DNA of 64,000 nt from a virus. Taxonomy: Duplodnaviria > Caudoviricetes. The position numbers and the translations under genes were made by a program. The notes under the pieces are model-generated. The model was given only the letters and a program-made list of their open reading frames with translations. It made no database searches and had not been told where the DNA came from. This document shows, piece by piece, positions 47,925-64,000 of this stretch. Where the stretch lies: the IMG/VR virus record IMGVR_UViG_3300013936_000014; one strand, 5' to 3'. Each line of letters starts with the position of its first letter. The stretch's first letter is position 1.

Positions 47925-47991
47925 CGTCGACTAGGCGACGTTAAACAGCCGTCAGGCCTAGTGCGTCCTTCCTTTTAAGGGAAGGGGTCGG
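47925..47991 (+). ncRNA. Pistol self-cleaving ribozyme
   Basis: P1 CGUCG/CGACG; loop ACUAGG pseudoknots with CCUAGU; UUAAACA linker; P2 CCG/CGG; GCG; P3 hairpin; GU cleavage site at 47987/47988. Confidence 0.88.
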
Positions 47992-48020
47992 ATCGTATAT
48001 CCGAGAAAGGAGATACTCTC

Positions 48021-48236: not shown

Positions 48237-49152
48237 GCCGCAAGGCCCCTCTCTCAAAAGAGAGAGGATCGGTGCAAGCCCGATGCCCCGAAAGGGGTGG
48301 CGCTCATGGCCTATGACCATCGAGGTTGCTCTCGTTAAAAAGCTATGGCGCTTTCAGGCGCCAGCGTCGTGCGAATCTTGACGCACGATGGCTGGGCAAG
48401 ACGCTTGAAGGCAAATGCCAGCGGTGGCAAACTCACCATCGCCCAGACGGGGGTCATCCCCGAACGGTGCAAAGCAAATAACCTCGCTTTGCGTAGTAAA
48501 AAAGAGGTAGACGCCCCTGCTTCCGCGGATCATCCGCAGGCGGTTGGGAAACGCACAAAGGAAAGCCAGGACTCAGAGCCTGGCGGCCCGATAAGGGAAA
48601 AGATGGAGCGACTGCAATCCAGGCAGGAAATGGCTTGGACTAACGCGCAACAGCGGCGCGGCGGGAAAACGATACCACTGATTTGATGTGGCTGGGTGAG
48701 ACGCCTCTCTTCTATGTCCTTCGACCGACGATCGAGGGAATGCGGATGGAGGGATGGCGGAAGTACCTCTGCCTCCTCATGCACGTTTCATGAGGGGGTT
48801 GGCACAGAGGGAAAACAGTCGCACCTCAAGGTGGGAGCTCGGTTGCGAAGCAACCAGGTGCACGGCTCGAATGGGGGAGATTCCCCCGGGCCCGGGAACA
48901 AAAATGACATGATTCTGCGGTGTCTTGGGTAGGTTTGCGTCGAAAACCTATCTCCGCGACCCTCAATCGTGTCTCTAGTCAACTGGAGCATCCTCCCTCA
49001 CGATGGAGGGTAACGTCTGCTTCAACGTCGTCGTGAAGAGGCAGTGAGGCGGCATCACGCCAAGACCAGGAAAATGATGGCAGATATCGGACGCGAGGGC
49101 GCTAAGGCCACGACAACGTTCGCGTTCCGGACAAAACATAGTGGCACCGCCA
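48237..49152 (+). ncRNA. Large structured non-coding RNA candidate (~0.9 kb)
   Basis: No RBS-led ORF; more than 15 hairpins; long-range helices; ends at a terminator. Confidence 0.65.
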
Positions 49153-49180
49153 GGGGCTGTCTTCGGACAGCTCCTTTTTC
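49153..49180 (+). terminator. Intrinsic terminator
   Basis: GGGGCTGTC-TTCG-GACAGCTCC-TTTTT. Confidence 0.85.
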
Positions 49181-49240
49181 TTAATGCGGCAAGCTGGTCC
49201 CAAGCCCAGCGGAAGACGCAGAGGGAGAAAGGAGACTGAT

Positions 49241-49696: not shown

Positions 49697-49793
49697 GACG
49701 AAAAACAACCTGGCGCCCGCCTCCGAGGCGCATTCTAAATATCGGGGCTTTGGCGGTTCGAAACCGCAACGACGGTTTGATTGAAAGGAGAAC

Positions 49794-50447
49794 ATGAGTA
49801 TGTCACAGAACCAAATCAAAAAAGTCAAGATCACCGATCTGGAAATCGGAACGGGAGTCGTCTACAAGGACAATGAGGGCAAATTCTTCCGTCTTTCTTG
49901 GGTGGAGGACAGCACCTCTCCCAGAGAGAGGGGGATAAGCGGAAGGCAATTGACCTTCTACACCTGGATCGAAGGGTATCGAAGCCCCGACGCCTGCAAC
50001 AAGACAATGAAGGAATTCTATGGTTCCTTCGGCGCCAAGAACACCGAAGAGCTCCTGGAGAACATGGACAAAAAAGGCTATTTCGTGAAGCCCGTCTATG
50101 CGATGATCCATTCGGGGATCTACTACTCCTTGAAAGACTTCCGCGATCCATATGACAGCGGATTGGCCGGATTCATCTTCGTGCCAAAGAAATGGATTGT
50201 GCACGAGTCCGAAGCCTCTTTCGAAGGGGTCGCCGAAATGGAGGTGAAAGAGTACAGCGCCTGGGCCAATGGCGAGGTGTGGGCCGTTGAACGCCTGGAC
50301 AAAGAAGGAAATGTCATCGATGGCTCCCACATTGTCTTCGGGGAGGGAGAGCTCGAAGACATAGACGACGCCCTCCGAGAAGCCATGATAGCCCCTCAAT
50401 GGGAATACGAGGTGGCGAAGGTGAAGACCTTCACCGTCTTGGAATAG
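49794..50447 (+). CDS. Hypothetical phage protein
   Basis: DSTSPRE, HSG, DSGLAGFI, WANGEVW pattern of a widespread phage family. Confidence 0.7.
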   Translation: MSMSQNQIKKVKITDLEIGTGVVYKDNEGKFFRLSWVEDSTSPRERGISGRQLTFYTWIEGYRSPDACNKTMKEFYGSFGAKNTEELLENMDKKGYFVKPVYAMIHSGIYYSLKDFRDPYDSGLAGFIFVPKKWIVHESEASFEGVAEMEVKEYSAWANGEVWAVERLDKEGNVIDGSHIVFGEGELEDIDDALREAMIAPQWEYEVAKVKTFTVLE

Positions 50448-50519
50448 CGTCCGAAAAAACAATTCCCTTTGCGGCGGGGTTATGCCGCAACGCCATTGAG
50501 GCAATAGGAGGAAACAAAA

Positions 50520-51155
50520 ATGCCAAATTATGTGAAAAATGCAATAACCTTCAAAACAACCGAAGGTTTGGAGAGATTCAAGAAGGCTTATATGCCGGAC
50601 GGAGAATTCTCCTTCAATTCCATAGACGAGATGCCCGCGTCTCTGGACATCGAAAGGGGCGGCAAAACGCTGCTTGCTTTCAAGATATACGTCACCAAGA
50701 ACCATATAGAAGGCGTCGAATATCCTTTGACTCTGGATTTGACCCCCGAAAAGCTCGAAGAGGTGTATTCTCACCTTTCCGAGAAAGAAAAGAAAGATTA
50801 CCTGAGACTCGGAGAGCAGATAGTCTCCAATCTCAGAGAATACGGCTGTGCCGACTGGTATGAGTGGAGGATTTCCCATTGGGGCACGAAATGGGACGCG
50901 AAAGAGGTTCAGATCGACGCGAAAACCCACTCGATCGTATTCCAGACGGCGTGGTCGGCTCCGATGCCGATCATAGAGAAGATCGCAAGGGAAATGAAAT
51001 CCCAATTCGCGTTCTCTTATGCAGATGAGGATATCGGCTATAATTGCGGAGTGTTCCTCTTTGGGGGAAAATACGGGTCCCAAGGATTCGGAGCGGAGAT
51101 GAGCGGGACGCCGGAAGGGAAGGAATTGGCCAAAAGACTATGGGACGCGGAATAG
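50520..51155 (+). CDS. DUF1281/YubB ferredoxin-like domain protein
   Basis: MPNYVKN, DWYEWRISHWGTKWD, FQTAWSAP, YADED. Confidence 0.75.
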   Translation: MPNYVKNAITFKTTEGLERFKKAYMPDGEFSFNSIDEMPASLDIERGGKTLLAFKIYVTKNHIEGVEYPLTLDLTPEKLEEVYSHLSEKEKKDYLRLGEQIVSNLREYGCADWYEWRISHWGTKWDAKEVQIDAKTHSIVFQTAWSAPMPIIEKIAREMKSQFAFSYADEDIGYNCGVFLFGGKYGSQGFGAEMSGTPEGKELAKRLWDAE

Positions 51156-51181
51156 CCGCGGCGAAAAAAAAGGAGGCAACC

Positions 51182-51292
51182 ATGAAAAACGAACAGAAAG
51201 TCTACGCAGAGATCTATTCTTACGGGGTTTCGGACCACATCGTATGGACAAAGTCCATAACATCTTCAATAAGAAGTACGACAGTCTTTTAA
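51182..51292 (+). pseudogene. 36-aa chimeric remnant of the duplicated 52009-53088 block
   Basis: 51194-51243 is identical to 52018-52067; 51243-51369 matches 52962-53088 with 3 mismatches. Confidence 0.85.
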
Positions 51293-51313
51293 ATTAAGGT
51301 CTGTTGTCAATTC

Positions 51314-51369
51314 CCGTCCCGAGCATGACGCTAAAAGGCTCTGGTTGGACTTCCATTAAAAGTCAACGA
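51314..51369 (+). repeat. Intergenic element type A (pseudoknot plus hairpin-CAACGA), copy 1
   Basis: CCGTCCCGAGCATGACGCTAAAAGGCTC...CAACGA. Confidence 0.9.
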
Positions 51370-51394
51370 TGTGTTCATTAGGAGGAAAACAAAA

Positions 51395-51991
51395 ATGGCT
51401 AACATTTGTTCAAACCAATACCGCTTCGTCTTCTCGACGGAAGAAGCGGCGAAGAAATTTGTCGAATTCGTAGAAAAGGAGACCGAAGAAAACTCTTCGG
51501 TTTATTTGCTCGGCATCAAAGCCGGCATCGCCGATGCGAATAACAGAGACGTTAGAGAATGGGAGGATACCGTGTCCTTCCGTTCTCCAGAAAACAAAAA
51601 AGAGGTGATGATTTACTCCGAGTCGAAATGGACGCCCTGTCCGAACGCTTGGAACGACATTGCGAAGACCTTCGACGAGAGGGTCGCAACATATTACGAG
51701 GCCGAAGAACCAGGATGCGGAATTTGGGCTTCTAATGACCCGGATTTCATTGGGAAATTTGTCGTCGATCCTTGTGTCGGGGAGGGATTCCCCGAAATTG
51801 ATAAACTCAATTATGGGGTTTACAACTACGAAGAAGTCGTGAAAATTCTTGATAGACTTCTAACAGGGAAAGGAGCCGGAATCCTTGATGATCTTGAGAC
51901 GTTGCTCTCGAAATTGAAGGCATCCAAGTACAAGGATGTTTTGTACGTTAATGAGATCATTGAGCAGCCACTCTCTAACTGGAAACAGTAA
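51395..51991 (+). CDS. Hypothetical protein (YubB-like)
   Basis: MANICSN, SESKWTP, YYEAEEPG. Confidence 0.65.
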   Translation: MANICSNQYRFVFSTEEAAKKFVEFVEKETEENSSVYLLGIKAGIADANNRDVREWEDTVSFRSPENKKEVMIYSESKWTPCPNAWNDIAKTFDERVATYYEAEEPGCGIWASNDPDFIGKFVVDPCVGEGFPEIDKLNYGVYNYEEVVKILDRLLTGKGAGILDDLETLLSKLKASKYKDVLYVNEIIEQPLSNWKQ

Positions 51992-52008
51992 GAAAAGGGG
52001 AATAGGAT

Positions 52009-52293
52009 ATGAAAAAGCAGAAAGTCTACGCAGAGATCTATTCTTACGGGGTTTCGGACCACATCGTGTGGTTCGACTCTCTGGAAGAGGCGGAAAAAGC
52101 GCTAGAAGAGCATATCGCCGCCATGCGGAAGGTCGGCGATTACGAGATCTTCAGAGATTCCGTTGCCGACGGGATCAAGATGACGGAGGGCGACATGTCC
52201 ATCACCATCTACATCCCATCGGGAAACGACGACGAGTGCGACCTTAACGTCGCCTTTGTCATCATCAGACCAATGAAAGGAGAAGGGAAATGA
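52009..52293 (+). CDS. Hypothetical protein
   Basis: ORF with RBS. Confidence 0.65.
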   Translation: MKKQKVYAEIYSYGVSDHIVWFDSLEEAEKALEEHIAAMRKVGDYEIFRDSVADGIKMTEGDMSITIYIPSGNDDECDLNVAFVIIRPMKGEGK

Positions 52294-52625
52294 AAACGTA
52301 TAATCTCAAAGTCGAAAAATGGAACATAGAAGAGGAGACGGGTTACAAACCGCTGTTCACCTTCTATGAGGATTTCTCCATCGCGGAGCCCTTCGGGGCT
52401 TCCGCCGTCGAGGAGACTTTCGATAGGATCTTCGAAGAGTGGAAAGGGGATCATAAAGCCCTGACCGAACTCGTGATGGCCCTCAATTGGAAAGTCTGGG
52501 TTCTTTTCGAAAGGGGGTCCAAACTGGCGGAAGTCTATTCCAGACTTTGGAATAAGGCGGACAGCTATGCCGTCTCTCACCTCAAAGGCGAGGAACTGTC
52601 GTACTTCTACAGGACGACAGACTGA
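52290..52625 (+). CDS. Hypothetical phage protein
   Basis: TFYEDFSIAE.FG, LTELVMALNWK, YFYRTTD. Confidence 0.7.
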   Translation: MKTYNLKVEKWNIEEETGYKPLFTFYEDFSIAEPFGASAVEETFDRIFEEWKGDHKALTELVMALNWKVWVLFERGSKLAEVYSRLWNKADSYAVSHLKGEELSYFYRTTD

Positions 52626-52633
52626 AAACGATC

Positions 52634-52687
52634 CGGGGAAGGAAAACCCCTCAAACCGCTTTGGGGATTCAGCTCAAATCCCAGCGA
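52634..52687 (+). repeat. Intergenic element type B, copy 1
   Basis: CGGGGAAGGAAAACCCC..AAACCGCTTTGGGG..hairpin..CAGCGA. Confidence 0.85.
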
Positions 52688-52716
52688 CATTGAAGCAATC
52701 ATAGGAGGAAAACGAA

Positions 52717-53016
52717 ATGAAAGACTTCAAGAAATTAGCCAAGCTCGTCAAGGAGCTCGACGCTCAGGACATCTGGGCCTACATGCTTGAGATCGCTACC
52801 GTCATCGACGGCAGAGGCGACCTCTCCGAAGGGCAGAAAGAGGATGCTTACTCTTTAGCGTCAACGGAATTCGAGAATTCCGAGGACAGCTCCATCGGCG
52901 CCAACGTCTTCGCCGAGGCGGCCATCGAAACCGTCTTGGATGAGGATTACGATGAGGATGATATGGACAAAGTCCATGACATCTTCAATGAGAAGTACGA
53001 CAGTCTTTTAAATTAA
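52717..53016 (+). CDS. Small acidic protein
   Basis: GGAGG RBS; D/E-rich. Confidence 0.7.
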   Translation: MKDFKKLAKLVKELDAQDIWAYMLEIATVIDGRGDLSEGQKEDAYSLASTEFENSEDSSIGANVFAEAAIETVLDEDYDEDDMDKVHDIFNEKYDSLLN

Positions 53017-53032
53017 GGTCTGTTGTCAATTC

Positions 53033-53088
53033 CCGTCCCGAGTATGACGCTAAAAGGCTCTGGTTGGACTTCCATTAAAAGTCAACGA
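53033..53088 (+). repeat. Intergenic element type A, copy 2
   Basis: As copy 1, with GAGT giving a U.G pair. Confidence 0.9.
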
Positions 53089-53111
53089 CGCGTGTTTTGA
53101 TAGGAGGAAAA

Positions 53112-53765
53112 ATGATCATGAAAAACACAATTCAACAAAATTTGGCCGCCGCGGCGGCAGCCAAGAAGGCAGAAGAAGCGGCAAGGAAAGCAAGGGCCGC
53201 AGAGGAGGCCGAACGAGCAAAAATCGAGGCTTTTGCCAAAGAACATGCCGATGTCGGCATTTCCACGATAAAAGGCATCATCGATGCCGCGAAGAAAGGA
53301 GAGCTCTTCTTCATCGCCATGGGAAAAGACGGCTTGGTCGCCGATTATGCGACCTCCGCGAAAGACGCCCAAAAACACGTTGAATGGATTTACAAATCCG
53401 CCCGTGAAAACAAGGAGGAATTGCTTCTCGATTCCTCAGCCATCATGGCCGGCATGATGGAAATGCAAAGAAAGTTCCAGATCGCGCATGACGCGATCGA
53501 AGCGGGGCTAATCCCAGAAGACGTCATCATCGACGAAGACAACGTCGAACACTGGGTGGCGGGCAACAGAGCCTACTCGACCGATGGGGTTGAGGAAGCA
53601 AACCTCGACGATATCGAGACGAGACTTTCTCTCAAAGACCGCAAAACGCTCCTCAAGGAGAGGATCAAAAAGTATCAGGAGCAATTGAAAGCTCTTGAGG
53701 AGGAAGAGGAGGGAGATGCAGACTCCTCTTGGGAGGAAGAAAACGACGGCGAAGAATATGAATGA
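53112..53765 (+). CDS. Hypothetical protein with acidic tail
   Basis: GGAGG RBS. Confidence 0.65.
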   Translation: MIMKNTIQQNLAAAAAAKKAEEAARKARAAEEAERAKIEAFAKEHADVGISTIKGIIDAAKKGELFFIAMGKDGLVADYATSAKDAQKHVEWIYKSARENKEELLLDSSAIMAGMMEMQRKFQIAHDAIEAGLIPEDVIIDEDNVEHWVAGNRAYSTDGVEEANLDDIETRLSLKDRKTLLKERIKKYQEQLKALEEEEEGDADSSWEEENDGEEYE

Positions 53766-53783
53766 TAAAACTTTGATTGCTTT

Positions 53784-53836
53784 CGGGGAAGGAAACCCTC
53801 CAAACCGCTTTTGGGGTTCAGCTCAAATCCCAACGA
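53784..53836 (+). repeat. Intergenic element type B, copy 2
   Basis: CGGGGAAGGAAACCC..AAACCGCTTTTGGGG..CAACGA. Confidence 0.85.
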
Positions 53837-53864
53837 AATTTTTCAAGAAAAGGAGAAAAATGAA

Positions 53865-56198
53865 ATGAGTTTTCTGAAAGAAACCAAATATGACGCAGGT
53901 CAGATCAGAAAAGACCTCACCTGGGAAGAAGCCAAGAAATTGCCTCTGTACATCAGCACCCCGAAAGGGAACGTCTGGGAAGGAGACAGAAAGGTCTCTT
54001 CGGAGGAGATCAGCGCCGGCAACTGCTACATAGCGAACGTCAGCGGCAAAGACATCCTCCTTTATTTCTTCGAGAAGGGGGAGTTCAATGGGATGAAAGG
54101 GGTCAGGCTCCATCTCATAAGGAAACGCCTGTCAAAGGCAAAATCCAAAGAGGAAATCTCCGTCGACGCGACCGGAGCGGAGCCGAATTGGATTTTCATA
54201 ACGCCCGATTGGAAGGCTTATGACAAGCAAGGGGAGCCCATATCCGCAAAGAGCCACTCGTACGGACGTGGCACGGGCTTTGGGTATTATGAGATTTCCG
54301 ATTGGAGGAAATATTCCCATGACCTCAGGATAACCGGCGAATTCAAAGAAACCCCTTATAACGAAAAGTCCGAGTGGCTGTCCCCGGCCAGCGTGGAGAT
54401 CCTGAAGGAAGCCGGATTCGACATGGAGACGAGGCCGGTTTCAAACTGGGAATTGCGGTGCGACTATTGCACTGAGGCTCCGGACGATTCCTACTCAATA
54501 GAATGGTTCGTGGGGAATCTCCTTCACCCCAACCGGATAAACCGAAGAAAGAAGATGTGCGCTTCTTTGCTTCACGACTATCGCTTCTATGATTCTTTTC
54601 TCGGAGGAAGGATATTCGGGATCCTAACGGAGAACGACCAAGCATACGGTGTCTTTCACTTGTTAAAAGAAGTATATAAATCGAATGCAATAATCGTATT
54701 CTCTTTGAAGATGCAGGGAAAGAAAGACATCCCGCCTTTTCTGGTCACGGAGAAAGGAAGCAAGACCATCTCTTCCGAGTTCATGCTCGAAAGCATGAAG
54801 GTGAGACCTTGCTGGTTCTCAAATTCGGAAAATTTGACCGCGGAGGAAATCTTGAAAGAGCTCGTCTCTCATGAAAGCTCCTTGGAACGAACGGAGGTCT
54901 TCAAGAATCTAATTCCTTTGCTGAAAGAGACTTTGAAAGAAATCTCCGTGAAAGGAGAACCTTCTTTCGACGCGATATGCAATCTGCTCTATCTTTTGAC
55001 CCCCAATGGGCAAAAAGACAGGGTTTTTGAAGAGACGCTGAAAGAAAACGGATTCGAAGAGGCGATGTCTGCCTCAGATTTCTTGGGGAAGATAGCTTGG
55101 AATTTGCCGCCCAATCTCAAAAAGAAAACCCCTTATTCTCAGGTGGGCTTGCCCAAAAAGATGTATTACGAGCTGAAGCGGCTGCCAAGAGGAAAAGGGG
55201 AAACGATAAATCTCGGTGGTATAATTCAGGCCATTTCCCCACGTTCTGACAGGGTGTCGTGCACAAATTCAAAAGAGAGAAAGGAGGCATACAAACCTTT
55301 TTTGGATTTCTGCTCCCATGCGGATCCGGCATTTCTGGACGCTTTCGCGGAATTCTCCGCGAGAGTCAAACAGATTGGAGGGAGATTCATGGGCAGGGAA
55401 GATTGGGCCACCATGTTCAGTCTGGGCGGAGGAGACCCCGCATCTCCGGTATCAGCCAAAATCAAGACTCTCGGCAGATCGATAAGGAAGATGCCCTCAG
55501 ACAATAGCAACCTGAAAGGCCTGCTGGACTATGAATGGGCCGATTACTACAGGCAGATAGAGGAGCTATCCCCCCTTGGGCTTGACTGGCCAAAGAGATA
55601 CGAGGCTTTCTCTTCCAAAAACGTCGCCTACTTCCTGAAGACCGTCAAAAGACGCTTCCCATCAATAGTGGACAACTCATACGCTTTGACAGAGAATGAC
55701 TTAATGTCGGCTCCTCTGGAGAAGAAAATGACGATGTTGCATGCGCTGCAGAATCTCATCTCCTCGGAAAACGAGCTGGAAATCGAGAAGGCGGAAATAG
55801 CGGGGCTGGACAACAAGTATGCACCATGGAGGGCGCAGCTTGCAAAATCCCTGTCCTGGAAAGGCAAAGATCTGGAGATCATCATCCCGGAAAGCCTGGC
55901 CGAACTTACCAGGGAAGGGCGGCTTCTCTGCCACTGCGTCGGCAGCTACAAGCAAGATGTCGCCGCCGGGAAAGAGGGCATCCTCTTTCTGAGAAAGCTG
56001 TCTTCGCCCCAAACCCCCTTCTTCACGATAGACGTGGTGAAAAAGGATGGGAAGTTCTCGGTGAGGCAGTGCCATGGGAAATGCAACAGCAATCCCACAC
56101 CGGAAATCGTGGAGGCCCTGAAACAATGGGCAAAAGCCACCGGGAAGATCGATGAGAGCTCAATCTCTTCGGCCTACAGGGCCCTCTGCCATCTGTGA
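53865..56198 (+). CDS. PcfJ-like domain protein
   Basis: C-terminal IIPESLAELTREGRLLCHCVGSY...ILFLRK...PFFTIDV...QCHG. Confidence 0.8.
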   Translation: MSFLKETKYDAGQIRKDLTWEEAKKLPLYISTPKGNVWEGDRKVSSEEISAGNCYIANVSGKDILLYFFEKGEFNGMKGVRLHLIRKRLSKAKSKEEISVDATGAEPNWIFITPDWKAYDKQGEPISAKSHSYGRGTGFGYYEISDWRKYSHDLRITGEFKETPYNEKSEWLSPASVEILKEAGFDMETRPVSNWELRCDYCTEAPDDSYSIEWFVGNLLHPNRINRRKKMCASLLHDYRFYDSFLGGRIFGILTENDQAYGVFHLLKEVYKSNAIIVFSLKMQGKKDIPPFLVTEKGSKTISSEFMLESMKVRPCWFSNSENLTAEEILKELVSHESSLERTEVFKNLIPLLKETLKEISVKGEPSFDAICNLLYLLTPNGQKDRVFEETLKENGFEEAMSASDFLGKIAWNLPPNLKKKTPYSQVGLPKKMYYELKRLPRGKGETINLGGIIQAISPRSDRVSCTNSKERKEAYKPFLDFCSHADPAFLDAFAEFSARVKQIGGRFMGREDWATMFSLGGGDPASPVSAKIKTLGRSIRKMPSDNSNLKGLLDYEWADYYRQIEELSPLGLDWPKRYEAFSSKNVAYFLKTVKRRFPSIVDNSYALTENDLMSAPLEKKMTMLHALQNLISSENELEIEKAEIAGLDNKYAPWRAQLAKSLSWKGKDLEIIIPESLAELTREGRLLCHCVGSYKQDVAAGKEGILFLRKLSSPQTPFFTIDVVKKDGKFSVRQCHGKCNSNPTPEIVEALKQWAKATGKIDESSISSAYRALCHL

Positions 56199-56202
56199 TA
56201 CC

Positions 56203-56255
56203 ATGTCCTGAGCATGACGTTAAAAGGCTCGGCTTTGCAGGCCTCAATGCAACGA
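56203..56255 (+). repeat. Intergenic element type A, copy 3
   Basis: ATGTCCTGAGCATGACGTTAAAAGGCTC...TGCAACGA. Confidence 0.88.
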
Positions 56256-56282
56256 TGTGTTAAACGAAAGGAGAAAATAGCT

Positions 56283-57029
56283 ATGGAAAACGTTAACACA
56301 AACAAGGACATCAGAACAGATGTCAAGCCGATCATGGACAAAATAAAAGTCCATGGAAAACCGATTGACAAATCGGATTTTTGGTTCTACGTCGAGGGAG
56401 ACCTCAAAACGGTCTTCCATGTCTCCGAAGGAGACGGGACGAACCTTTCGGAAGAAGATGAGGCCGAAGGATTCTCTGATTATATCTATTACGACACCTA
56501 TGAGGGGGCAATCTCCTACAGGATGATCGATGCCTTCATGGAAGGCGATACTGAGGCGCTTGACGACCTCGCGTCGGACGGAGGGCAGGTCATGCTTTAC
56601 AATCATTATACGGATTTGTCTTTGAAGCAAATCTGCTACAAAGTTCTTGATATGACCGGCTACAGCCATCCGGAGAATCTTGTAGTCAGAATTCTTTCGG
56701 GGGCGTGCGCAGACGCAGTTTTCCTCGATAAGGACTTGCCGGAGGATTCGTTGGCGAGGCAGACCTGCATCGCCATTTGGTACAAAACCAAAGGCGATCC
56801 TCTCAAGGCCATGGAGATCCTCAAAAAGAAGATCCCCCTTGACCAAGCCTACATCAGAGGCGTAGCCAAGGCAGAAAAAAGAGAAATCGAAAGACTAGGG
56901 GCGAAACTCCGCGTCGTAACCGACGAGGATTTCCCAGATGAGCTCAAGAAGATCACTCCAATCTCCCTCTGCTATATCGAAAAAGACGGGATGTACTCTT
57001 CTTTGCCGATTTTCTGCGGTATAAAATAA
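56283..57029 (+). CDS. Hypothetical protein with a C-terminal DprA-N-terminus-like segment
   Basis: AIWYKTKGD...ILKKK...VVTDEDFPDELKKI. Confidence 0.6.
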   Translation: MENVNTNKDIRTDVKPIMDKIKVHGKPIDKSDFWFYVEGDLKTVFHVSEGDGTNLSEEDEAEGFSDYIYYDTYEGAISYRMIDAFMEGDTEALDDLASDGGQVMLYNHYTDLSLKQICYKVLDMTGYSHPENLVVRILSGACADAVFLDKDLPEDSLARQTCIAIWYKTKGDPLKAMEILKKKIPLDQAYIRGVAKAEKREIERLGAKLRVVTDEDFPDELKKITPISLCYIEKDGMYSSLPIFCGIK

Positions 57030-57043
57030 AGGAGGAAAAGAAA

Positions 57044-57289
57044 ATGAAGCGTCAAATTAGGAAGGTCTTCCGCACCGAAAAGATGCAGAGACTCGCCCAA
57101 GAAGTAGTCGACAGAATCGACTATTCTGCAGAGGAACTCAGCGACTCTCTCGTTGAGGCCCTTGATGCTGCCGTCACGTGGAATGAGGATAAGTGGGCGG
57201 TTGTCGCCTACTACAGCCTCCCCGAGAAACCGTTGCCTTATGATAAGGCGGCTTGCAGATTCTTGGAAGACCTCACGAACTGCGTCTGA
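57044..57289 (+). CDS. Hypothetical protein
   Basis: GGAGG RBS. Confidence 0.65.
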   Translation: MKRQIRKVFRTEKMQRLAQEVVDRIDYSAEELSDSLVEALDAAVTWNEDKWAVVAYYSLPEKPLPYDKAACRFLEDLTNCV

Positions 57290-57294
57290 AAGAC

Positions 57295-57344
57295 CCGTCC
57301 CGAGCATGACGTTAAAAGGCTCGGCTTGCGGCCTACCGCAACGA
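57295..57344 (+). repeat. Intergenic element type A, copy 4
   Basis: Core plus TTGCGG-ccta-CCGCAACGA. Confidence 0.9.
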
Positions 57345-57374
57345 CGTGGTAATATATCAAAGGAGGAAAATGAT

Positions 57375-57950
57375 ATGAAAATCACCAAAAAAGAATTTCT
57401 GCAGAAGGATACTTGGGTCAACAAAGACTCAAGAACCATTATCACATCCGACATCACTTGGCTAGAAGGTGTCGGAGAAGTCCATCATGGCTTCAATATG
57501 AAGCAGAATATGGATAAGACCAAATTCGAAGAGGCTATGAAATGGAAAAATCCAGGAGATTACATCCTGGAAAAATATCCGGCCGACGGAACTTTTCTCC
57601 CGAATAGGCTTATCAGGCTCTCCATCGATGAGGCCTACGACAAAGTATCACAATGGGGGCGCGCGGAGAGCTTCACTTATGAAGAACACTCATTTGATTA
57701 CCAAATTTCTCTATGGAGAGGATACGGATATCAGATGAATACGTCTTTGGCTTTCGAAGCCAAAGACGAAGAGGAGGCTCTCATAAAAGCGTCTCTGGCC
57801 GACCCGAACGCCGATATAGAGGAGGCCGATGAGGGGCAGGTTCAAAACGAGCCGCCAGTTGATCAGGCGGTGTATTTGGACCGTTCTGAGTACGATGCAC
57901 CAAATATCTACTTGAACATTGAAAATGCACGAGTAGAAAAACTTGACTGA
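57375..57950 (+). CDS. Hypothetical protein
   Basis: AGGAGG RBS. Confidence 0.65.
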   Translation: MKITKKEFLQKDTWVNKDSRTIITSDITWLEGVGEVHHGFNMKQNMDKTKFEEAMKWKNPGDYILEKYPADGTFLPNRLIRLSIDEAYDKVSQWGRAESFTYEEHSFDYQISLWRGYGYQMNTSLAFEAKDEEEALIKASLADPNADIEEADEGQVQNEPPVDQAVYLDRSEYDAPNIYLNIENARVEKLD

Positions 57951-57965
57951 AAGGAGGTGAGAGCC

Positions 57966-58367
57966 ATGACACTGACCTATTGGTTCGGCAAGGACAACGA
58001 CGTCGAGTTCGAATACGAGGTCGACGAGAGATACGCGGATTATCTCGCGGATTATCTCGAAAACGAATATTCGAGCGTCGAGGAGGCCGTCAAAGACATC
58101 TACAAAGACGTGGACGACGAGGAAGAGGAGCAGGAGGCGCTCAAGTGCGAAAGCCTGAGCGACCTCGCGAGCTTCATCCGCGAGAGAGACGAATCCTGGG
58201 CCGAGGACATAGTCTGCAGAGATGGGAGCTACGTCGACTATCTCGAAGAGACCCTCAAAGACAAATACGAAGACGAGGCCAGCGAAGCGTTCGACGACGA
58301 GAACGACGGCTGCGACCCGGACGGCTTTTATGGCTGGGACGATTACTGGCATTGGAAGAACGGCTAA
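57966..58367 (+). CDS. Highly acidic small protein
   Basis: AAGGAGGTG RBS; very D/E-rich. Confidence 0.7.
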   Translation: MTLTYWFGKDNDVEFEYEVDERYADYLADYLENEYSSVEEAVKDIYKDVDDEEEEQEALKCESLSDLASFIRERDESWAEDIVCRDGSYVDYLEETLKDKYEDEASEAFDDENDGCDPDGFYGWDDYWHWKNG

Positions 58368-58373
58368 GCGCGT

Positions 58374-58427
58374 CGGGGAAGGAAAACCCTATAAACCGCT
58401 TTTGGAGTTCGGCTCAAACCCCAACGA
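58374..58427 (+). repeat. Intergenic element type B, copy 3
   Basis: CGGGGAAGGAAAACCC..AAACCGCTTTTGG..CCAACGA. Confidence 0.85.
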
Positions 58428-58454
58428 TCTCGCGCATTTGGGAGGAAAAATGAA

Positions 58455-58844
58455 ATGGCGACATTCAGAATCAAAGCCACCGCGACGGTGGAAATCGAAA
58501 AAGAGATAGAGGCCTCATCGAAAGAAGAGGCCAGAAAGCTCTTCTTTGACAACGGCTTCTCCGACATCGTCGAAGAAGCCGACTCGGCATCCGTGGAGGA
58601 CATCGACGTCGACGAGGTGGACATGGTCAGCATGAGATACGTGGTCAAGGCGTACGACATCAGGTATTTCCTCGATGATGAGGAGCCAAGGAAGAATCTT
58701 CCGACGGAACTCATCCTGGAGATCGACTCCGACGGGGAGAAAGAAGACGTCGATTTCGACGGCCTCGTCGGCGACGCGATCGAGGACAGGATCGGATACG
58801 AGCCCGTCAAAGACTTCAAATACCGCGTAATCGAGGCAAAATGA
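58455..58844 (+). CDS. Acidic hypothetical protein
   Basis: GGAGG RBS. Confidence 0.65.
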   Translation: MATFRIKATATVEIEKEIEASSKEEARKLFFDNGFSDIVEEADSASVEDIDVDEVDMVSMRYVVKAYDIRYFLDDEEPRKNLPTELILEIDSDGEKEDVDFDGLVGDAIEDRIGYEPVKDFKYRVIEAK

Positions 58845-58901
58845 CGCAAACCGTCCCGAGCATGACGCTAAAAGGCTCCTTTTGCGCAAGTTGCGCAACG
58901 A
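58845..58901 (+). repeat. Intergenic element type A, copy 5 (57 bp identical to copy 6)
   Basis: Direct comparison. Confidence 0.92.
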
Positions 58902-58924
58902 TGCTGAGAAATCACAGGAGGAAA

Positions 58925-59833
58925 ATGAAAATGAAAGATTTCAGCAAATTAAGCAGAGGAGAGAAAGCCTTTGCGATGAATGAGGTCATCGAAAGCCTCA
59001 ACGTCGAGACGGCATACTATTCCGATTGGCTCAACGAATGGCCGGACGGGGCCACCATTGAAGAGGCAAAAGACGATTTCGACATTCATGCCTCGGACTC
59101 GAAAGAGGACCGGGACTCCAAGGAAAGCCTTTGGGAAACCCTGGAAAGAAAATTCCGGATCAGAGTCGAGATGTTCGGATGCGAGGATGGCCGCTCCATC
59201 CAAGAGGAGGACGTCGTCGGGCTCTGGGTCCCGAAAACCAAGAATCCGGAGTATGAGGAAGATGAGAGGGGAGGAGGCTTCGCCATCCTTAAAGGCGAGG
59301 AAGGAAAGCTCAATAGGGTGAGAAAGACCCTCGAGGAGCTTGGATATCCCCTTACCCCGACGGAAGAAGGAAAGAATTACTATTCCTTCTTCGTGGACTG
59401 GAGGAAATGGAGGCTGCAGAAAGCGGTCTCCTTCATCCTCAAGTCGGCAGAGTGGCTTAGTCAAGAGGAATGCGGGTGTTGCACCATCCGCCTGACGAAG
59501 AACACCCAGCTTGCCGTTGGATGGGCGAACGGCTTCGATCCCGACGACAAAACGATCATACATTCCAAAACACAGCCCGAATGGGCGATCGCCGTGGCGG
59601 TCAAATCCCTCAAGGGCGACGACTTGAAGACGGATCTCGAATGGCTCACGACGCCATATGTGGCCGAAGGCGAGGATGAGGGCCTGGTGTTCTCCCAGCT
59701 GGAATGGACGCTGAGCCCGACGGGCACGGAGGATGACGCGAGAAGGGCGTTCTCCTACCTGATGTCTCAGCTGGACGGCATCATCAAGGGATACCGCCTG
59801 ATGGCTGACGGCAGATGCCTGCTCCGCAAATAG
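58925..59833 (+). CDS. Hypothetical protein
   Basis: GGAGG RBS; flanked by identical 57-bp repeats. Confidence 0.65.
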   Translation: MKMKDFSKLSRGEKAFAMNEVIESLNVETAYYSDWLNEWPDGATIEEAKDDFDIHASDSKEDRDSKESLWETLERKFRIRVEMFGCEDGRSIQEEDVVGLWVPKTKNPEYEEDERGGGFAILKGEEGKLNRVRKTLEELGYPLTPTEEGKNYYSFFVDWRKWRLQKAVSFILKSAEWLSQEECGCCTIRLTKNTQLAVGWANGFDPDDKTIIHSKTQPEWAIAVAVKSLKGDDLKTDLEWLTTPYVAEGEDEGLVFSQLEWTLSPTGTEDDARRAFSYLMSQLDGIIKGYRLMADGRCLLRK

Positions 59834-59834
59834 C

Positions 59835-59891
59835 CGCAAACCGTCCCGAGCATGACGCTAAAAGGCTCCTTTTGCGCAAGTTGCGCAACGA
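59835..59891 (+). repeat. Intergenic element type A, copy 6
   Basis: Identical to 58845-58901. Confidence 0.92.
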
Positions 59892-59917
59892 CTTGCTTGT
59901 ATAAGGAGGTAAAATAT

Positions 59918-60490
59918 ATGAAATACATATACAGCAAAGAAAAAATCGATGCAGCCATGAAGCGTCTCAGAAGGTTCCGCACCTTTAAAGCCTATATCAG
60001 CGAGCATTTCGCCGGCGGAAAGGATACCGTCATCGAAGTCTGTGGGATAGACGACGACAGAAAGGAGGGCTGGGAAAAGATCGATAAAGTTAACAAAATC
60101 CTTTCGGATCTTTTGGGCGAAGACGCCTATCTCGAATGCCACGACCATTGCTGCCACTATTGCTACATCGGAACGGATGAGCGGGCCGAAAAGGGAAGCG
60201 AGCACGACCCCATCCGGCTGAATGGGGGCAACCTGGAAGACTATCCCAACAAAATCATCTATCAGGTCCAGCAGCTCTGGAAGCAGCTTGCGGAGAACAA
60301 AGGAGACGAAGGGACCTGCGTCCTTGGGGAGAAATTGAATTTCTCCTACCAAGGGAAGCATTACTCCATGATCCCTTTGGATAGATGCCAGGGAAGCCTC
60401 TCGAGGGAATCGTACCTCAAGACAATCGAATCCCTTTTGGAATCGATCGGATGCGGCGATCTCCGCTTCGATTGGGGGATCATGGATTAG
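59918..60490 (+). CDS. Hypothetical protein
   Basis: AAGGAGG RBS. Confidence 0.65.
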   Translation: MKYIYSKEKIDAAMKRLRRFRTFKAYISEHFAGGKDTVIEVCGIDDDRKEGWEKIDKVNKILSDLLGEDAYLECHDHCCHYCYIGTDERAEKGSEHDPIRLNGGNLEDYPNKIIYQVQQLWKQLAENKGDEGTCVLGEKLNFSYQGKHYSMIPLDRCQGSLSRESYLKTIESLLESIGCGDLRFDWGIMD

Positions 60491-60599
60491 GAAGCGAGGC
60501 AAAACGCGCGTCTCCACAAATCGAAATGTCGTTAAACTTCTCTTTTCGGGCTTCAGTCAAAGCCAACGATATGCTATAATGTTCAAGGAGGCAAATGTT

Positions 60600-61073
60600 A
60601 TGAACGAACAGCAAATCAACAAAATCCTGGAAGGAATCCATTGCGGTTCCTTCACCAAGGTGGTCTATAAGACCGCCCTTCACGCCAACAAAGACCACAA
60701 AGGCGTGGAAGTCGTCAAACTGGTCAAGGCGATCGTCCGTTTTGGGGTAGAATACTCCAAAATGGCCTCCGTCAGGCAAAAGGCTGCCCAAAAAGCCGCG
60801 CTCGGCTTGGCGGTCGACACCCACAAGCTCCCATGGGGAAGCTGGAAGAACAGATTCCTCATCGAGAACAAAGGGCAGCTTTACATCCGCCTTACGTGCC
60901 CGAAGAACAATGTCTCTTTGAGACCGGTCGTCATTGGGTATTACGCCGATGGGAGAGAAATTTCCAGAGCAGAGGCTGAAAAGATGACCCGTCCATCTGA
61001 CTGGGACCAAAAAGACGAGGCCCTCGACGTCTACACCAAGAGAATCGAGGACATCGTCTCGATCGGCGAATAG
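60600..61073 (+). CDS. Hypothetical basic phage protein
   Basis: AAGGAGG RBS; LPWGSW motif. Confidence 0.65.
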   Translation: MNEQQINKILEGIHCGSFTKVVYKTALHANKDHKGVEVVKLVKAIVRFGVEYSKMASVRQKAAQKAALGLAVDTHKLPWGSWKNRFLIENKGQLYIRLTCPKNNVSLRPVVIGYYADGREISRAEAEKMTRPSDWDQKDEALDVYTKRIEDIVSIGE

Positions 61074-61079
61074 GCGATT

Positions 61080-61134
61080 CCGTCCCGAGCATGACGCTAA
61101 AAGGCTCTGATTTGACTTTCAACAAAGTCAACGA
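61080..61134 (+). repeat. Intergenic element type A, copy 7
   Basis: Core plus TTGACTTT-caac-AAAGTCAACGA. Confidence 0.9.
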
Positions 61135-61161
61135 TTTTCGCAACACAGGGAGGAAAATGCC

Positions 61162-61743
61162 ATGAGCACCAGAAGCTTAATTGCAAAACAAACGAAAGAT
61201 GGGAGGTATAAAGCCATCTATTGCCATTTCGATGGCTACGTGTCGGGGGTCGGCGTGACCCTTGACGCCAACTATGACACCGAGGAAAAAGTCGATGAGC
61301 TGATTTCTTTGGGAGATATCTCCGCCCTTATGGGGACCATCGAGAAAACGAGGGGAAAAGCCTATAAAGAAGGCCATCAGAGGATCTATGCCAAGCATGA
61401 TTTGGAAAATCTTCAGGGAAGCGGGATAGAGTACGTCTACCTGTATGTCAGCAACGGATTGTGGAACGTCTACGATGTCTACGGAGGCTATTGGGACCTG
61501 CTTCCGAATCTGCTTAAGGAACAGGGGCTACAATCCAAGTTCGCGGAGAGGTGGGACGCCAATCTCGGAAACATCGAGAAAGGCGACGCCTACATGCAGA
61601 TGAGGAGGGCTGAGGAAGAAGGCAAGCTCGCCGACCTCCTCATGGACGCTTTGGACTCGCTGAGCGAGGAGGATTACGAATCCTTCAGAAAAAGATGGTC
61701 CGAGGTCTGGGCATCCCACGTCTTCTACAAAAAAGAAGGATAG
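61162..61743 (+). CDS. Conserved hypothetical phage protein
   Basis: MSTRSLI...IYCHFDGY..GVG. Confidence 0.7.
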   Translation: MSTRSLIAKQTKDGRYKAIYCHFDGYVSGVGVTLDANYDTEEKVDELISLGDISALMGTIEKTRGKAYKEGHQRIYAKHDLENLQGSGIEYVYLYVSNGLWNVYDVYGGYWDLLPNLLKEQGLQSKFAERWDANLGNIEKGDAYMQMRRAEEEGKLADLLMDALDSLSEEDYESFRKRWSEVWASHVFYKKEG

Positions 61744-61760
61744 CGCAAATCCGGCAACCA

Positions 61761-61811
61761 TGGAAGGAAAACCACCCAAACCCTCCTGCGGCAGGAAGTC
61801 GGCCGCAACGA
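61761..61811 (+). repeat. Intergenic element type B variant
   Basis: TGG-AAGGAAAA-CCA (covariant stem)..AAACC..TGCGGC..GCCGCAACGA. Confidence 0.7.
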
Positions 61812-61842
61812 CCTTTGTTTGATCTGAAAGGAGAAATTGACA

Positions 61843-62763
61843 ATGTCAGCAAACCAAAGCAAAAAGACCGAAGCCCTTTACAGCTTCGCCGACAAAGACG
61901 TCGCGGGGCTTCACGTCCACATCTCTTCCGGAAACGGGAAGATCGGCCACATCTGGAACGTCTCGACCGTTCCGGGGGACGCCCTCAACGCGCCAACCGT
62001 CAGCCGCGACGGCAAACAGACGCGCATCACCGACGTCGCCGGCACCTGCGGAGGCGTCTGCAAGGACTGCCATAATTTCTGCTACGCCTTCGACTCGATG
62101 CGCCAGCACCACAATGCCTGCGCCCCCGCGTGGAGCGAGAACACCCTCGTCTACCGCAAGGACGTCGACCGCTTCATGAAGGAGATCGACGACGCCATCA
62201 CGGCGAAGAACTCCAGACCCCGCGGCAAGAAGGTCGAGGAGTTCCGCATCAATGTCTCGGGGGAGCTCGAGTCCTATCGCTCGCTCCTTCTCTGGATAAA
62301 GCTCGCCGAGAGGCATCCGGAGACCCGCTTCGGCATCTACACCAAGAGATTCTCCTGGGTCGTGGACTATCTCAAGGCGAACGCCAAGTTCCCGGCGAAC
62401 TTCTTCATCAACGCGTCCGAATGGAACCACAACATCGACCATCTCAAGCCGATGATCGAGGGCAGGACCAACATCTTCGCCTACTGCGATTCCCTCGCCG
62501 AGGCGCAGGAATACCTCGATAAGGGGTACAGGATGTGCAGGGCGATCGATCATCGCGGCTGCCACACCGGCGTGAAGTGCGACGAATGCGGCTATTGCTA
62601 CGGCCGCTACGGCATCATCAACGTCTTCGTCCTCGATCACAGCGCCGCCGGCCGCGTGCGCTTGGCGAAAGAGGCAAAGGAGCTTAAGGCGAACGGAAAG
62701 CTCGACGCCGTCATCAAGCGTCTCGAAGACGCCCAGGCCGTCGAAGGAAAGGAGGCCAAATAA
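61843..62763 (+). CDS. Gp88-like (radical-SAM-related) protein
   Basis: GNGKIG, TC..C..C...CYA, FRINVSGE, YTKR, C-terminal CDECGYC. Confidence 0.7.
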   Translation: MSANQSKKTEALYSFADKDVAGLHVHISSGNGKIGHIWNVSTVPGDALNAPTVSRDGKQTRITDVAGTCGGVCKDCHNFCYAFDSMRQHHNACAPAWSENTLVYRKDVDRFMKEIDDAITAKNSRPRGKKVEEFRINVSGELESYRSLLLWIKLAERHPETRFGIYTKRFSWVVDYLKANAKFPANFFINASEWNHNIDHLKPMIEGRTNIFAYCDSLAEAQEYLDKGYRMCRAIDHRGCHTGVKCDECGYCYGRYGIINVFVLDHSAAGRVRLAKEAKELKANGKLDAVIKRLEDAQAVEGKEAK

Positions 62764-63341
62764 TGACTCTCGCGGAATTCGACGTGATGATGGCGGAAGC
62801 CCTCACGCGCATCGGGATGAACGTCCCGTCCCTCAGACATCGCTACGCGCCTCTCGGCTCATGGGAGGCGAACGCCGTCAGGAACCACTCCCTGATAGCG
62901 ACCCGCGGGCCCGCCAGCGTCGCGATCGACCTCGAAAAGGTAATCGAATCCGGCGAGGATACCGGGGCATTGCTTCCGTCGTACCTGAAGTCCATAGCGA
63001 CCAACCTTCGCCGCATGCGCGAGTTCGGCGACGACGGCAACCGCCCCCTCCGAATGCCGAAATCGATCCCCGAAGAGGCGGTCCGCTCCTACGCCGCCCA
63101 TCTTGACCGATACGGCAGCACCGTCTGCAGACACGAGTATCTGGAGAGATTCGGCGCAGACGGGATCCGCGAGGCGCTGGCCGACCATGGATGCGAAGTT
63201 CGCGTCGATGTGCTCGAAAACCATTTCGAACCCATGACGATGACGAATTACGAATGCGACGGGGGCGGCTATTCGCGCGTCGTCGCGATTCAGCCGACCG
63301 TCAGGCTGACCCTGTTGAGGAAGGGGGGCAAAAACAGATGA
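62763..63341 (+). CDS. Hypothetical protein
   Basis: Coupled TAATG start. Confidence 0.6.
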   Translation: MTLAEFDVMMAEALTRIGMNVPSLRHRYAPLGSWEANAVRNHSLIATRGPASVAIDLEKVIESGEDTGALLPSYLKSIATNLRRMREFGDDGNRPLRMPKSIPEEAVRSYAAHLDRYGSTVCRHEYLERFGADGIREALADHGCEVRVDVLENHFEPMTMTNYECDGGGYSRVVAIQPTVRLTLLRKGGKNR

Positions 63342-63353
63342 GACCCGGAAGAG

Positions 63354-63380
63354 AAAGGCGCCTTGTGCGCCTTTTTTCTT
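63354..63380 (+). terminator. Intrinsic terminator
   Basis: AAAGGCGC-cttgt-GCGCCTTTTTT. Confidence 0.8.
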
Positions 63381-63414
63381 CTTGGTTTTCATATATAGGA
63401 AAGGAGGTGGTTCT

Positions 63415-63567
63415 GTGAATCGCAAACGCGTCTTCGTTTTGACTCTTTGGCTGATTCTACTGACGATGACCATAGCCGCATTGGCTATGGGGGTGAAACC
63501 AGAATATCTCGTCGGGGAATTCCTGGGACTCGCGTCGCCGCTCATCGTCTATCTTGTCTCGAGATAG
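63415..63567 (+). CDS. Small two-TM membrane peptide (50 aa)
   Basis: AAAGGAGGTG RBS; GTG start. Confidence 0.6.
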   Translation: MNRKRVFVLTLWLILLTMTIAALAMGVKPEYLVGEFLGLASPLIVYLVSR

Positions 63568-63622
63568 CGTCTGAGCGGCGACGGCATCGTTCCCCGAAAC
63601 AAAAAGAAAGGAGGTGAGCCAT

Positions 63623-63706
63623 ATGGGATTAGCCATTCTTCCGATTGCGCTTGTTGCCCTGATGATCTGGGCCCTTTGGGCCGTCAACCATCCGGACGGC
63701 AGGTAG
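63623..63706 (+). CDS. 27-aa hydrophobic peptide MGLAILPIALVALMIWALWAVNHPDGR
   Basis: AAAGGAGGTG RBS; manual translation. Confidence 0.6.
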   Translation: MGLAILPIALVALMIWALWAVNHPDGR

Positions 63707-63765
63707 CGGCTTTTTTGGGGGGCGAAAGCCCCCAACGACCCATTCCAAGAAAGGAGGTGACGAAT

Positions 63766-63852: not shown

Positions 63853-64000
63853 GTCCGAGATTGGGGAGGGCTTCGAAAGAAGCCCTCCTTCAAGAAGGTT
63901 CGAAAACGGGTCCCCTTGAAGGTGGGCACGCCCCCCCCGAATTTTTCGCCCCGCCGGGGGATTTTTTCGCCCCCCGTTTTTTTTCTTTCCGCCCCCCTCT

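Follow-up and report, generated by a model that had tools for sequence, protein, structure and literature searches.

A repeated hairpin-CAACGA RNA module, joined to different pseudoknots, between the small genes of an uncultured phage

Phage early operons house anti-defence and host-takeover genes, and the even expression of dozens of unrelated small genes from one transcript is, to our knowledge, poorly understood. The operator of T4 gene 32 is a small H-type pseudoknot that lies upstream of the ribosome-binding site (RBS) and exists in one autoregulated copy, while lambda nut (boxA plus boxB) has a loop-specific hairpin and is present in one or two copies per operon. Here we analysed a stretch of DNA of 64,000 nucleotides (nt), called the window below, which comes from an uncultured phage of ~138 kilobases (kb; IMG/VR record IMGVR_UViG_3300013936_000014). 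In nearly every gap of an array of small genes, the window carries a repeated folded RNA unit, a hairpin closed by CAA and followed by CGA, which we call the hairpin-CAACGA unit or the module. Like the gene 32 operator, it sets a small H-type pseudoknot ahead of unstructured RNA and of the RBS of a phage message, but instead of one copy there are ~15, on unrelated genes and with an invariant CAACGA. Like nut, it has a fixed linear sequence beside a small hairpin in nascent RNA, but here the loop is free, the base of the stem is fixed and the copies are many.

The closest parallels in purpose and in genome dynamics are found in other phages. In T7, five RNase III signals cut the early precursor of ~7,000 nt (PMC3867540). 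There, as may be the case here, structured intercistronic signals divide one long early transcript into separately stable messages, but the T7 signals are long irregular duplexes cut by the host RNase III, whereas the module has helices of 6-9 base pairs (bp) and a stacked knot of 3-5 bp, and its cleavage is only proposed. The PeSL cassettes of T4-type phages are also short repeated cassettes placed between small non-essential early genes, which associate a variable stem-loop with a fixed motif and form direct repeats flanking single genes, favouring modular shuffling (PMC2839356). However, a PeSL consists of a strong sigma-70-like promoter and a terminator hairpin acting on transcription, while the module shows no promoter consensus and no U-tract and is made of a pseudoknot and an invariant CAACGA on the RNA strand. 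RiboJ-type insulators likewise place a hairpin shortly before the RBS, as here in operons using self-cleaving ribozymes, but no ribozyme stands ahead of the hairpins of the window and no gain in Shine-Dalgarno accessibility is predicted.

A sequence-only reading of the window had listed hairpins of unrelated sequence roughly 10-20 nt before an RBS, and we found all the copies that it listed, at its coordinates or at most 1-3 nt from them. Their enrichment over shuffled intergenic controls, on which that reading depended, was clear, since the 1,501 nt of array intergenic DNA contain 13 CAACGA, where dinucleotide shuffles give 0.59 (maximum 4 in 2,000), and the 13,070 nt of array coding sequence include only two. 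The motif CA[A/G]CG[A/C] lies at the 3' base of a hairpin in 15 of the 18 array gaps of at least 25 nt (49.2-63.8 kb, + strand). In the rest of the window, we detected on both strands no hairpin-anchored copy with a downstream RBS outside the array. Upstream of the module, three kinds of partner are found, named types A, B and C, and copies with none are called solo; S1 and S2 are the first and second stems of type A. The copies are the following, all on the + strand.

49750-49772, + strand: 8-bp stem, 3-nt loop; RBS 11 nt downstream; gene at 49794
49713-49747, + strand: type C pseudoknot, partner of the 49750 copy; stem GCGCC/GGCGC, loop CUCCGA pairing with UCGGGG past an A-rich linker
50469-50493, + strand: solo, with its own pseudoknot, flank CCC(U) at 50465-50468 pairing with loop GGGG; CGC replaces CGA; RBS 12 nt downstream
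51345-51369, + strand: behind the type A pseudoknot 51315-51341; flank UGG pairs with loop CCA
52661-52687, + strand: closed by CAG-CGA; behind type B 52635-52657; flank GCU pairs with loop AGC
53064-53088, + strand: behind the type A pseudoknot 53034-53060; near-duplicate of the 51345 copy
53811-53836, + strand: behind type B 53785-53806; leader of the PcfJ-like gene; one G.U pair in the stem
56235-56255, + strand: behind the type A pseudoknot 56204-56230 (S1 UGUC/GACG)
57326-57344, + strand: 6-bp stem, 4-nt loop; behind the type A pseudoknot 57296-57322
58402-58427, + strand: behind type B 58375-58397; one A.C mismatch in the stem
58882-58901, + strand: plain 7-bp hairpin with a 3-nt loop and CGA; behind the type A pseudoknot 58852-58878
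59872-59891, + strand: plain 7-bp hairpin and CGA; behind the type A pseudoknot 59842-59868
60545-60569, + strand: behind a diverged type A variant, 60517-60541 (ACA/UGU, GAA/UUC, linker UUAAAC); spacer with TGCTATAAT
61112-61134, + strand: 8-bp stem; behind the type A pseudoknot 61081-61107
61786-61811, + strand: opens with CUG; behind type B 61761-61782 (stem UGG/CCA); leader of the GP88 gene; covariance model R2 match at 61778-61811, E 1e-5
63715-63738, + strand: solo; downstream of the terminator 63351-63377 and before a small gene at 63766; flank CUUUU can pair with loop GAAAG

In agreement with the sequence-only reading, the type A core was found seven times against none expected and the type B core four times in the array. 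The partner which had been read separately at 60516 is present but is a variant of type A, at ~60517-60541. The description of the hairpins as mostly opened by UUG is right for most copies and fails for a few that have a C.A first pair (61786 and the orthologues of 60545). In the window, 10-15 nt separate CGA from the Shine-Dalgarno sequence.

To extend the comparison, we looked for relatives of the PcfJ-like protein of the array. None was found in IMG/VR; a large protein collection gave 70 full-length homologues with 35-45% identity, and six homologue-bearing contigs (L140 and L142 to L146) were taken for comparison. They are syntenic with the window, carry pistol, twister-sister and twister ribozymes where tested, and have the module in nearly every gap of 70-115 nt. 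The composite of type C and module at 49750 is conserved in L140 (5549-5646) and L143 (6834-6931), and the orthologues of the 63715 module lie at 21469 in L140, 21605 in L142 and 18465 in L146. The window and the six relatives gave 70 module copies and 60 unique hairpins. Strong ribosome-binding sites stand downstream of all copies, with a spacing from CGA to the Shine-Dalgarno sequence of 7-22 nt (median 12, 70 copies), and no copy reaches into the Shine-Dalgarno sequence or the start codon. At genes that abut or overlap (57029/57044, 52293/52290 and 62763), the module is missing. Some of the spacers between CGA and the RBS hold an extended -10-like TGnTATAAT, for example TGCTATAAT (60570-60585 in the window, 18440 in L140, 13650 and 18035 in L142), which is kept among orthologues and would be a possible internal host-type promoter with a very short leader.

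The 60 unique hairpins have stems of 5-9 bp and loops of 3-13 nt. Their first three pairs are U-A, U-A and G-C in 59-60 of the 60, while helix positions 4-7 vary between C-G, G-C, A-U, U-A and G-U; CGA follows the helix in 57 of the 60 and the base after it is almost never G. Aligning the copies, as the sequence-only reading had proposed, thus gave inner pairs that covary and a fixed helix base and CGA. In a covariance-model alignment of 49 distinct copies, which leans towards structure because it was fitted to the model, every one of the 280 pair cells holds a standard pair and 23 changes are double-sided; this pairing was not matched in any of 500 shuffles, and slid registers reached 32-60%. 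Independently of that alignment, we took 55 CAACGA sites with a downstream RBS and ATG from the window and the six relatives, of which 69% have a hairpin of 5 bp or more closing at CAA, against 4% when the upstream sequence is shuffled. Minimum free energy z-scores of 30-nt windows are weak (mean -0.85) and uninformative, since shuffled G+C-rich 30-mers fold too. G.U pairs number 25 and A.C mismatches 4, which indicates that the fold is on the coding strand and, most simply, in the mRNA. We read the hairpin-CAACGA unit as an RNA element that acts in cis within the messenger, and not as a DNA signal; the covariation of the hairpin and the excess of G.U over A.C support the earlier view that selection acts on a single-stranded structure.

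In addition, and this had not been proposed before, the module is usually itself an H-type pseudoknot, in which the 5' flank pairs with the loop of its own hairpin. Such a knot is present in 36 of the 60 unique copies. On the unique copies with loops of at least 6 nt (36), the best flank-loop helix has a mean of 3.56, against 2.82 ± 0.12 with permuted partners and 2.73 ± 0.10 with shuffled loops, and exchanges between flank and loop include UGG/CCA to UGA/UCA and GCU/AGC to GCC/GGC. In some copies the knot pairs the first 3-5 bases of the loop and leaves a YAAU-like third loop. The solo subclass is the most regular, with a 5' pyrimidine run (CCCC, CCCCU, CCUC or CCUU) pairing with the first bases of the loop (GGGG, AGGGG, GAGG or AAGG) and YAAU remaining as third loop. 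In 16 solo copies of equal length, 95% of the pseudoknot helix is paired and two positions show C-G to U-A exchanges; for the structure as a whole the figure is 98%, against 40-60% in slid registers. In copies joined to type B, the bases right after AAACC (GCU, CCC or CCU) pair with the loop of the second hairpin. Copies with loops of 3-4 nt are unable to form a knot, and every one of them stands 3-4 nt behind another unit. A compact H-type pseudoknot accompanies the module in every case, built either from its own flank and loop or by a type A, B or C unit placed 3-4 nt upstream. The first loop measures 0-2 nt and the second stem 6-8 bp, which we take to be the classical geometry of an H-type pseudoknot. 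Two interleaved helices with compensatory changes, as expected of this fold, are found both in the solo module (95-100% paired) and in type A.

Of the 70 copies, 25 have a type A-like unit upstream, 24 a type B and 3 a type C, and the remaining 18 are solo. The type A partner, already drawn as a pseudoknot in the sequence-only reading, proved to be a real H-type pseudoknot with many compensatory variants. It has five variants of S1 (CGUC/GACG, UGUC/GACG, CGAC/GUCG, UGAC/GUCA and CGCC/GGCG) and nine of S2 (GAGC/GCUC, AAGC/GCUU, AAGU/ACUU, GGCA/UGCC, UGGC/GCCA, GGGC/GCCC and others), all of which pair, and its third loop reads YUAAAAG or UUAAAC. The orthologues of the variant leader at 60545 in L140, L142, L143, L144 and L146 have the canonical type A. 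In a hybrid at position 5143 of L145, the second stem of type A (UUGGC/GCCAA) is directly followed by CGA, so that the architecture of type A is also that of the hairpin unit. In addition, type A resembles the first 23 nt of the phage's own pistol ribozyme, with a CGUC/GACG stem, an 8-nt loop and a UUAAACA linker, without anything catalytic. Indeed, types A and C share with the P1, pseudoknot and A-rich linker domain of pistol a stem of 4-5 bp, a loop that pairs downstream and a YUAAA linker, but the P2 helix, the internal loop with its catalytic purines and the G-U cleavage site of pistol are absent here.

Outside the lineage, 19 diverse IMG/VR contigs contain the exact type A core, usually 10-20 nt before an RBS and without hairpin-CAACGA. 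This 27-nt core (GUCCUGAGCAUGACGUUAAAAGGCUC) is identical across these 19 very diverse viral contigs (L001-L019); in L008 it lies 10 nt before a tRNA-Ile gene (6923-7046) and in L012 directly before a terminator. The type A core has the appearance of a phage RNA motif which is widespread and uncatalogued and has no tie to translation. Type B consists of a covarying stem of 3-4 bp, a AAGGAAAA loop and then CAAACC, and the GG:CC pairing proposed inside it is invariant across copies. In IMG/VR, at least 70 unique copies stand immediately before ribosome-binding sites of the AGAAAGGA type (L020-L139), frequently more than one in a given phage and up to five. The AAGGAAAA loop is itself Shine-Dalgarno-like, with GGA in the loop; the downstream proteins are often small and start with MKK(N/S)T, and the motif has no Rfam match. 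Types A and B are independent, widespread units, found in other phages without hairpin-CAACGA.

The joining of the module to different partners, claimed from the window alone, is confirmed by the relatives, where orthologous genes carry different partner types. For example, the GP88 leader has type B and the hairpin in the window and in L142, and a solo knot in L140 and L143. Such differences between orthologues indicate that the units are exchanged as modules. A 66-nt direct repeat with 95% identity (58836-58901 and 59826-59891) flanks the gene 58931-59833, and a 151-nt repeat with 91% identity (51243-51393 and 52962-53112) links two leaders. Deletion, duplication or mini-circle formation could start from these near-identical leader cassettes, as PeSLs are described to allow.

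The hairpin-CAACGA unit itself was found only in this phage lineage among the sequences searched. Covariance model R2 gave nothing below E 0.18 in 852 kb of phage loci that carry type A or B. A pattern search with TTGCGG..CCGCAACGA..GGAGG gave 6 matches in IMG/VR and more than 120 in GTDB (185,000 genomes), all of them chance matches in G+C-rich DNA, none multi-copy or array-like. No module, type A or type B had an Rfam match, whether at gathering thresholds or at permissive ones (E ≤5 on 15 kb; E ≤10 on a 576-nt slice; relative L143).

The module belongs to a region of the window, 40-64 kb, that is transcribed on the + strand. Between 49.2 and 63.3 kb there are ~22 small genes with strong AGGAGG-type ribosome-binding sites, mostly ORFans with the exception of DUF1281-like, PcfJ-like and GP88 proteins. 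The neighbouring features, of which the large terminase, NrdD and the polymerase mark the DNA as that of a phage, are listed below.

4568-5926: NrdD
35212-37152: large terminase
41603-43318: RdRP/YonO-like polymerase, 571 amino acids; Pfam RdRP PF05183, E 9e-9
47925-47992, + strand: pistol ribozyme; Rfam, 67 bits
48233-48316, + strand: twister-sister ribozyme; Rfam, 57 bits
49152-49175, + strand: strong terminator, upstream bracket of the array
49178-49229, + strand: twister core; Rfam, 43 bits, under the family threshold with the conserved core intact
63351-63377, + strand: strong terminator, downstream bracket of the array

The PF05183 match corresponds to the fold of YonO-type single-chain two-barrel RNA polymerases, and the homologue in L142 has 986 amino acids. 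The two terminators are the only strong ones of the + strand and bracket the array, and sigma-70-like promoters are not enriched: over 16.5 kb, 6 promoter-like sites were counted where 8.5 would be expected, and no module coincides with one. Pistol, twister-sister and the twister core all lie at gene or RNA boundaries of the + strand unit of the array. From this layout we infer one long early-type transcript, starting near 47.9 kb and already cut by these three ribozymes. The U-tract of the terminator 49152-49175 overlaps into the first strand of the twister; since it runs into this strand, the twister would be formable only on read-through transcripts. Directly upstream of pistol lies an AT-rich AAATGTAAATT motif (47896-47906), which is kept in all relatives (~2540 in L140, ~5440 in L142, ~380 in L143) and is a candidate promoter for the whole ribozyme-plus-array transcript, possibly one used by a phage polymerase. 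As an internal promoter of the array it was rejected, since its single exact copy in the window is the one at 47896.

We favour the reading that the module is a boundary RNA cassette, recognised by a trans-acting factor, which processes or stabilises the messages, and we give it a probability of about 40%. An RNA-binding factor, most likely a phage or host endoribonuclease, would read the invariant helix base and CGA. If the RNA is cut at this site, or if 5'-to-3' decay stops at the knot, every downstream gene would gain a message of its own that is separately stable and has a short open leader, and the upstream message would keep a knotted 3' end; as a by-product, the repeated cassettes would permit gene shuffling through recombination. 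Stem-base-reading RNA nucleases and binders recognise an invariant stem base together with a single-stranded trinucleotide on its 3' side. The fixed helix base and three unpaired bases, with a free loop and inner stem, are the pattern expected of a factor that grips the base of the stem and the 3' tail. The siting of the module at cistron boundaries, the presence of three ribozyme classes at other boundaries and the absence of the module where genes abut also favour a boundary element, and the module has been kept across phages whose PcfJ-like proteins are only 35-45% identical. In purpose it would be analogous to the RNase III signals of the T7 early precursor, and in genome dynamics it would be like PeSL.

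Several observations weigh against this reading. Pfam and PHROG scans of 20 array proteins revealed no nuclease or RNA-binding domain. The distance between CGA and the Shine-Dalgarno sequence has its peak at 11-13 nt (37 of the 70 copies), and a ribosome-linked role would explain this no less well. With natural and with shuffled upstream sequence, the predicted accessibility of the Shine-Dalgarno sequence is equal (0.60 and 0.59), so that in silico the module is neither an obvious RBS-sequestering switch nor a demonstrable insulator. The ideal RNase III substrate has 22 bp (PMC3867540), and the module helices of 6-9 bp, or ~11-12 bp with the stacked knot, are shorter; over all copies, helices are of 5-9 bp, at most ~12 bp with the knot, where about two helical turns would be expected of an RNase III substrate.

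The same spacing peak speaks for the main rival, that of a translational operator or enhancer, in which a phage or ribosomal protein on the helix base and CGA switches all early messages together, like T4 RegA or gene 32, or in which the knot docks on the 30S platform as a standby site. Every copy precedes a strong RBS, an invariant sequence within a variable fold suggests a common binder, and pseudoknot operators upstream of ribosome-binding sites exist, as in T4 gene 32. We nevertheless hold this explanation to be unlikely, though it deserves serious attention, since the module does not overlap the Shine-Dalgarno sequence or the start codon and leaves its predicted accessibility unaffected, no RNA-binding protein was seen among the 20 scanned array proteins, and the PcfJ leaders of L140, L142 and L143 have a second hairpin between the module and the RBS, which are ~55 nt apart. 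A signal to RNA polymerase in the nascent RNA, for pausing, attenuation or antitermination as with nut or put, could be specific to the two-barrel polymerases of the phage. A polymerase of this kind is encoded at 41603-43318, the layout of a hairpin followed by a fixed linear sequence is suitable, and the array runs for 14 kb between its terminators without internal promoter-like sites; yet antitermination sites are needed once or twice per operon and not 15 times, and one module lies past the 63351 terminator and so belongs to the transcription unit that follows. By eye, U makes up only ~37% of the tails after CGA. A single copy of 15 (53811-53833) is flagged as terminator-like; the module is not an intrinsic terminator, which would need a G+C-rich hairpin with a U-tract directly after it. 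We regard a polymerase signal as rather improbable. Also rejected were the following: a sigma-70 promoter, as no promoter-like site is found at any module; a small upstream open reading frame starting at UUG, which has no RBS before it and inconsistent stops; and pairing of CAACGA with the large non-coding RNA, as no UCGUUG is present on the + strand at 48.3-49.2 kb.

If the pseudoknot, the UUG/CAA helix and CGA formed the catalytic core of a new small self-cleaving ribozyme at each gene boundary, the sharing of one operon with three ribozyme classes would be natural. The module is positioned relative to the RBS like the twister at 49178-49229, type A has the pistol P1 stem CGUC/GACG, the 8-nt loop and the UUAAA linker, and ~7 unpaired nucleotides are conserved (YAAU and CGA). 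However, no Rfam ribozyme model matches, even at E 10 on the 576-nt slice, be it twister, twister-sister, hatchet, hammerhead, HDV-like or hairpin. The pistol model (RF02679) matches no module while the true pistol at 47925-47992 scores 67 bits, and the anatomy differs, with no P2 helix, internal loop or G-U cleavage site, the 3' strand of the type A pseudoknot directly after the linker, and CGA after the hairpin instead of GU and a P2 strand. Hatchet requires four stems, ~80 nt and a cleavage site at the 5' end, which the module does not fit; the hatchet, HDV-like and hammerhead anatomies were compared by eye and rejected. Moreover, several copies are plain 7-bp hairpins with 3-nt loops, and a solo form of 30-34 nt would be smaller than any known natural class. 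Such a ribozyme is therefore very unlikely in our opinion. The broader proposal, that the module is either a new, very small self-cleaving ribozyme class or the dedicated target of an undescribed phage endoribonuclease, is doubtful but less so; if it were true, the whole early transcript would be punctuated by RNA cutting, with known ribozymes at three boundaries and the module at ~15 others. Finally, the element could act as DNA. N4 promoters are short template-strand DNA hairpins with a 3-nt loop, and attC sites have RYYYAAC...GTTRRRY ends, extrahelical bases and an adjacent IntI integrase. A hairpin promoter used by an injected polymerase, as in N4, or a folded single strand serving recombination and the movement of gene cassettes, as in integron attC or PeSL, would agree with the shuffled genes and leaders (66-nt repeat around 58931-59833, 151-nt repeat 51243/52962), with the partners that differ between orthologues and with a conserved shape of free sequence. 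This we find highly improbable, because the ratio of G.U to A.C (25 to 4) puts the fold on the coding and not on the template strand; the long loops (up to 13 nt), the bulges and the flank-loop pseudoknots do not resemble extruded cruciforms or the short stem and 3-nt loop of N4 hairpins; the helix ends are TTG/CAA (UUG/CAA in RNA) and not the AAC/GTT of attC, although no systematic search for an integrase was made; and there is no sigma-70 promoter, unlike in PeSL.

Whatever its function, this work defines three uncatalogued RNA motifs with covariation support. As an RNA cassette, the module is small, portable and strongly conserved, its sequence offers a clear handle, and it is put together like a building block with two other mini-motifs that are common across phage metagenomes. 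Should it prove to direct message cutting or protection, it would be nature's equivalent of synthetic insulators and could serve in the design of operons, and it would point to a new RNA-protein or catalytic RNA system.

Two other features of these genomes were noted. In the relatives L140 (2808-4744) and L143 (1010-4641), an intergenic repeat of ~200 nt is present in 4-5 copies before small genes; it begins gggaaaccuuc..uugaacgcc, is sited between the large RNA and twister, and has no Rfam match. In the window, the region 63880-64000, after the last small genes, shows odd runs of C and G with T-tracts (ccccccccgaattttt..., gccccccgtttttttt) and may be a genome end or a packaging region.

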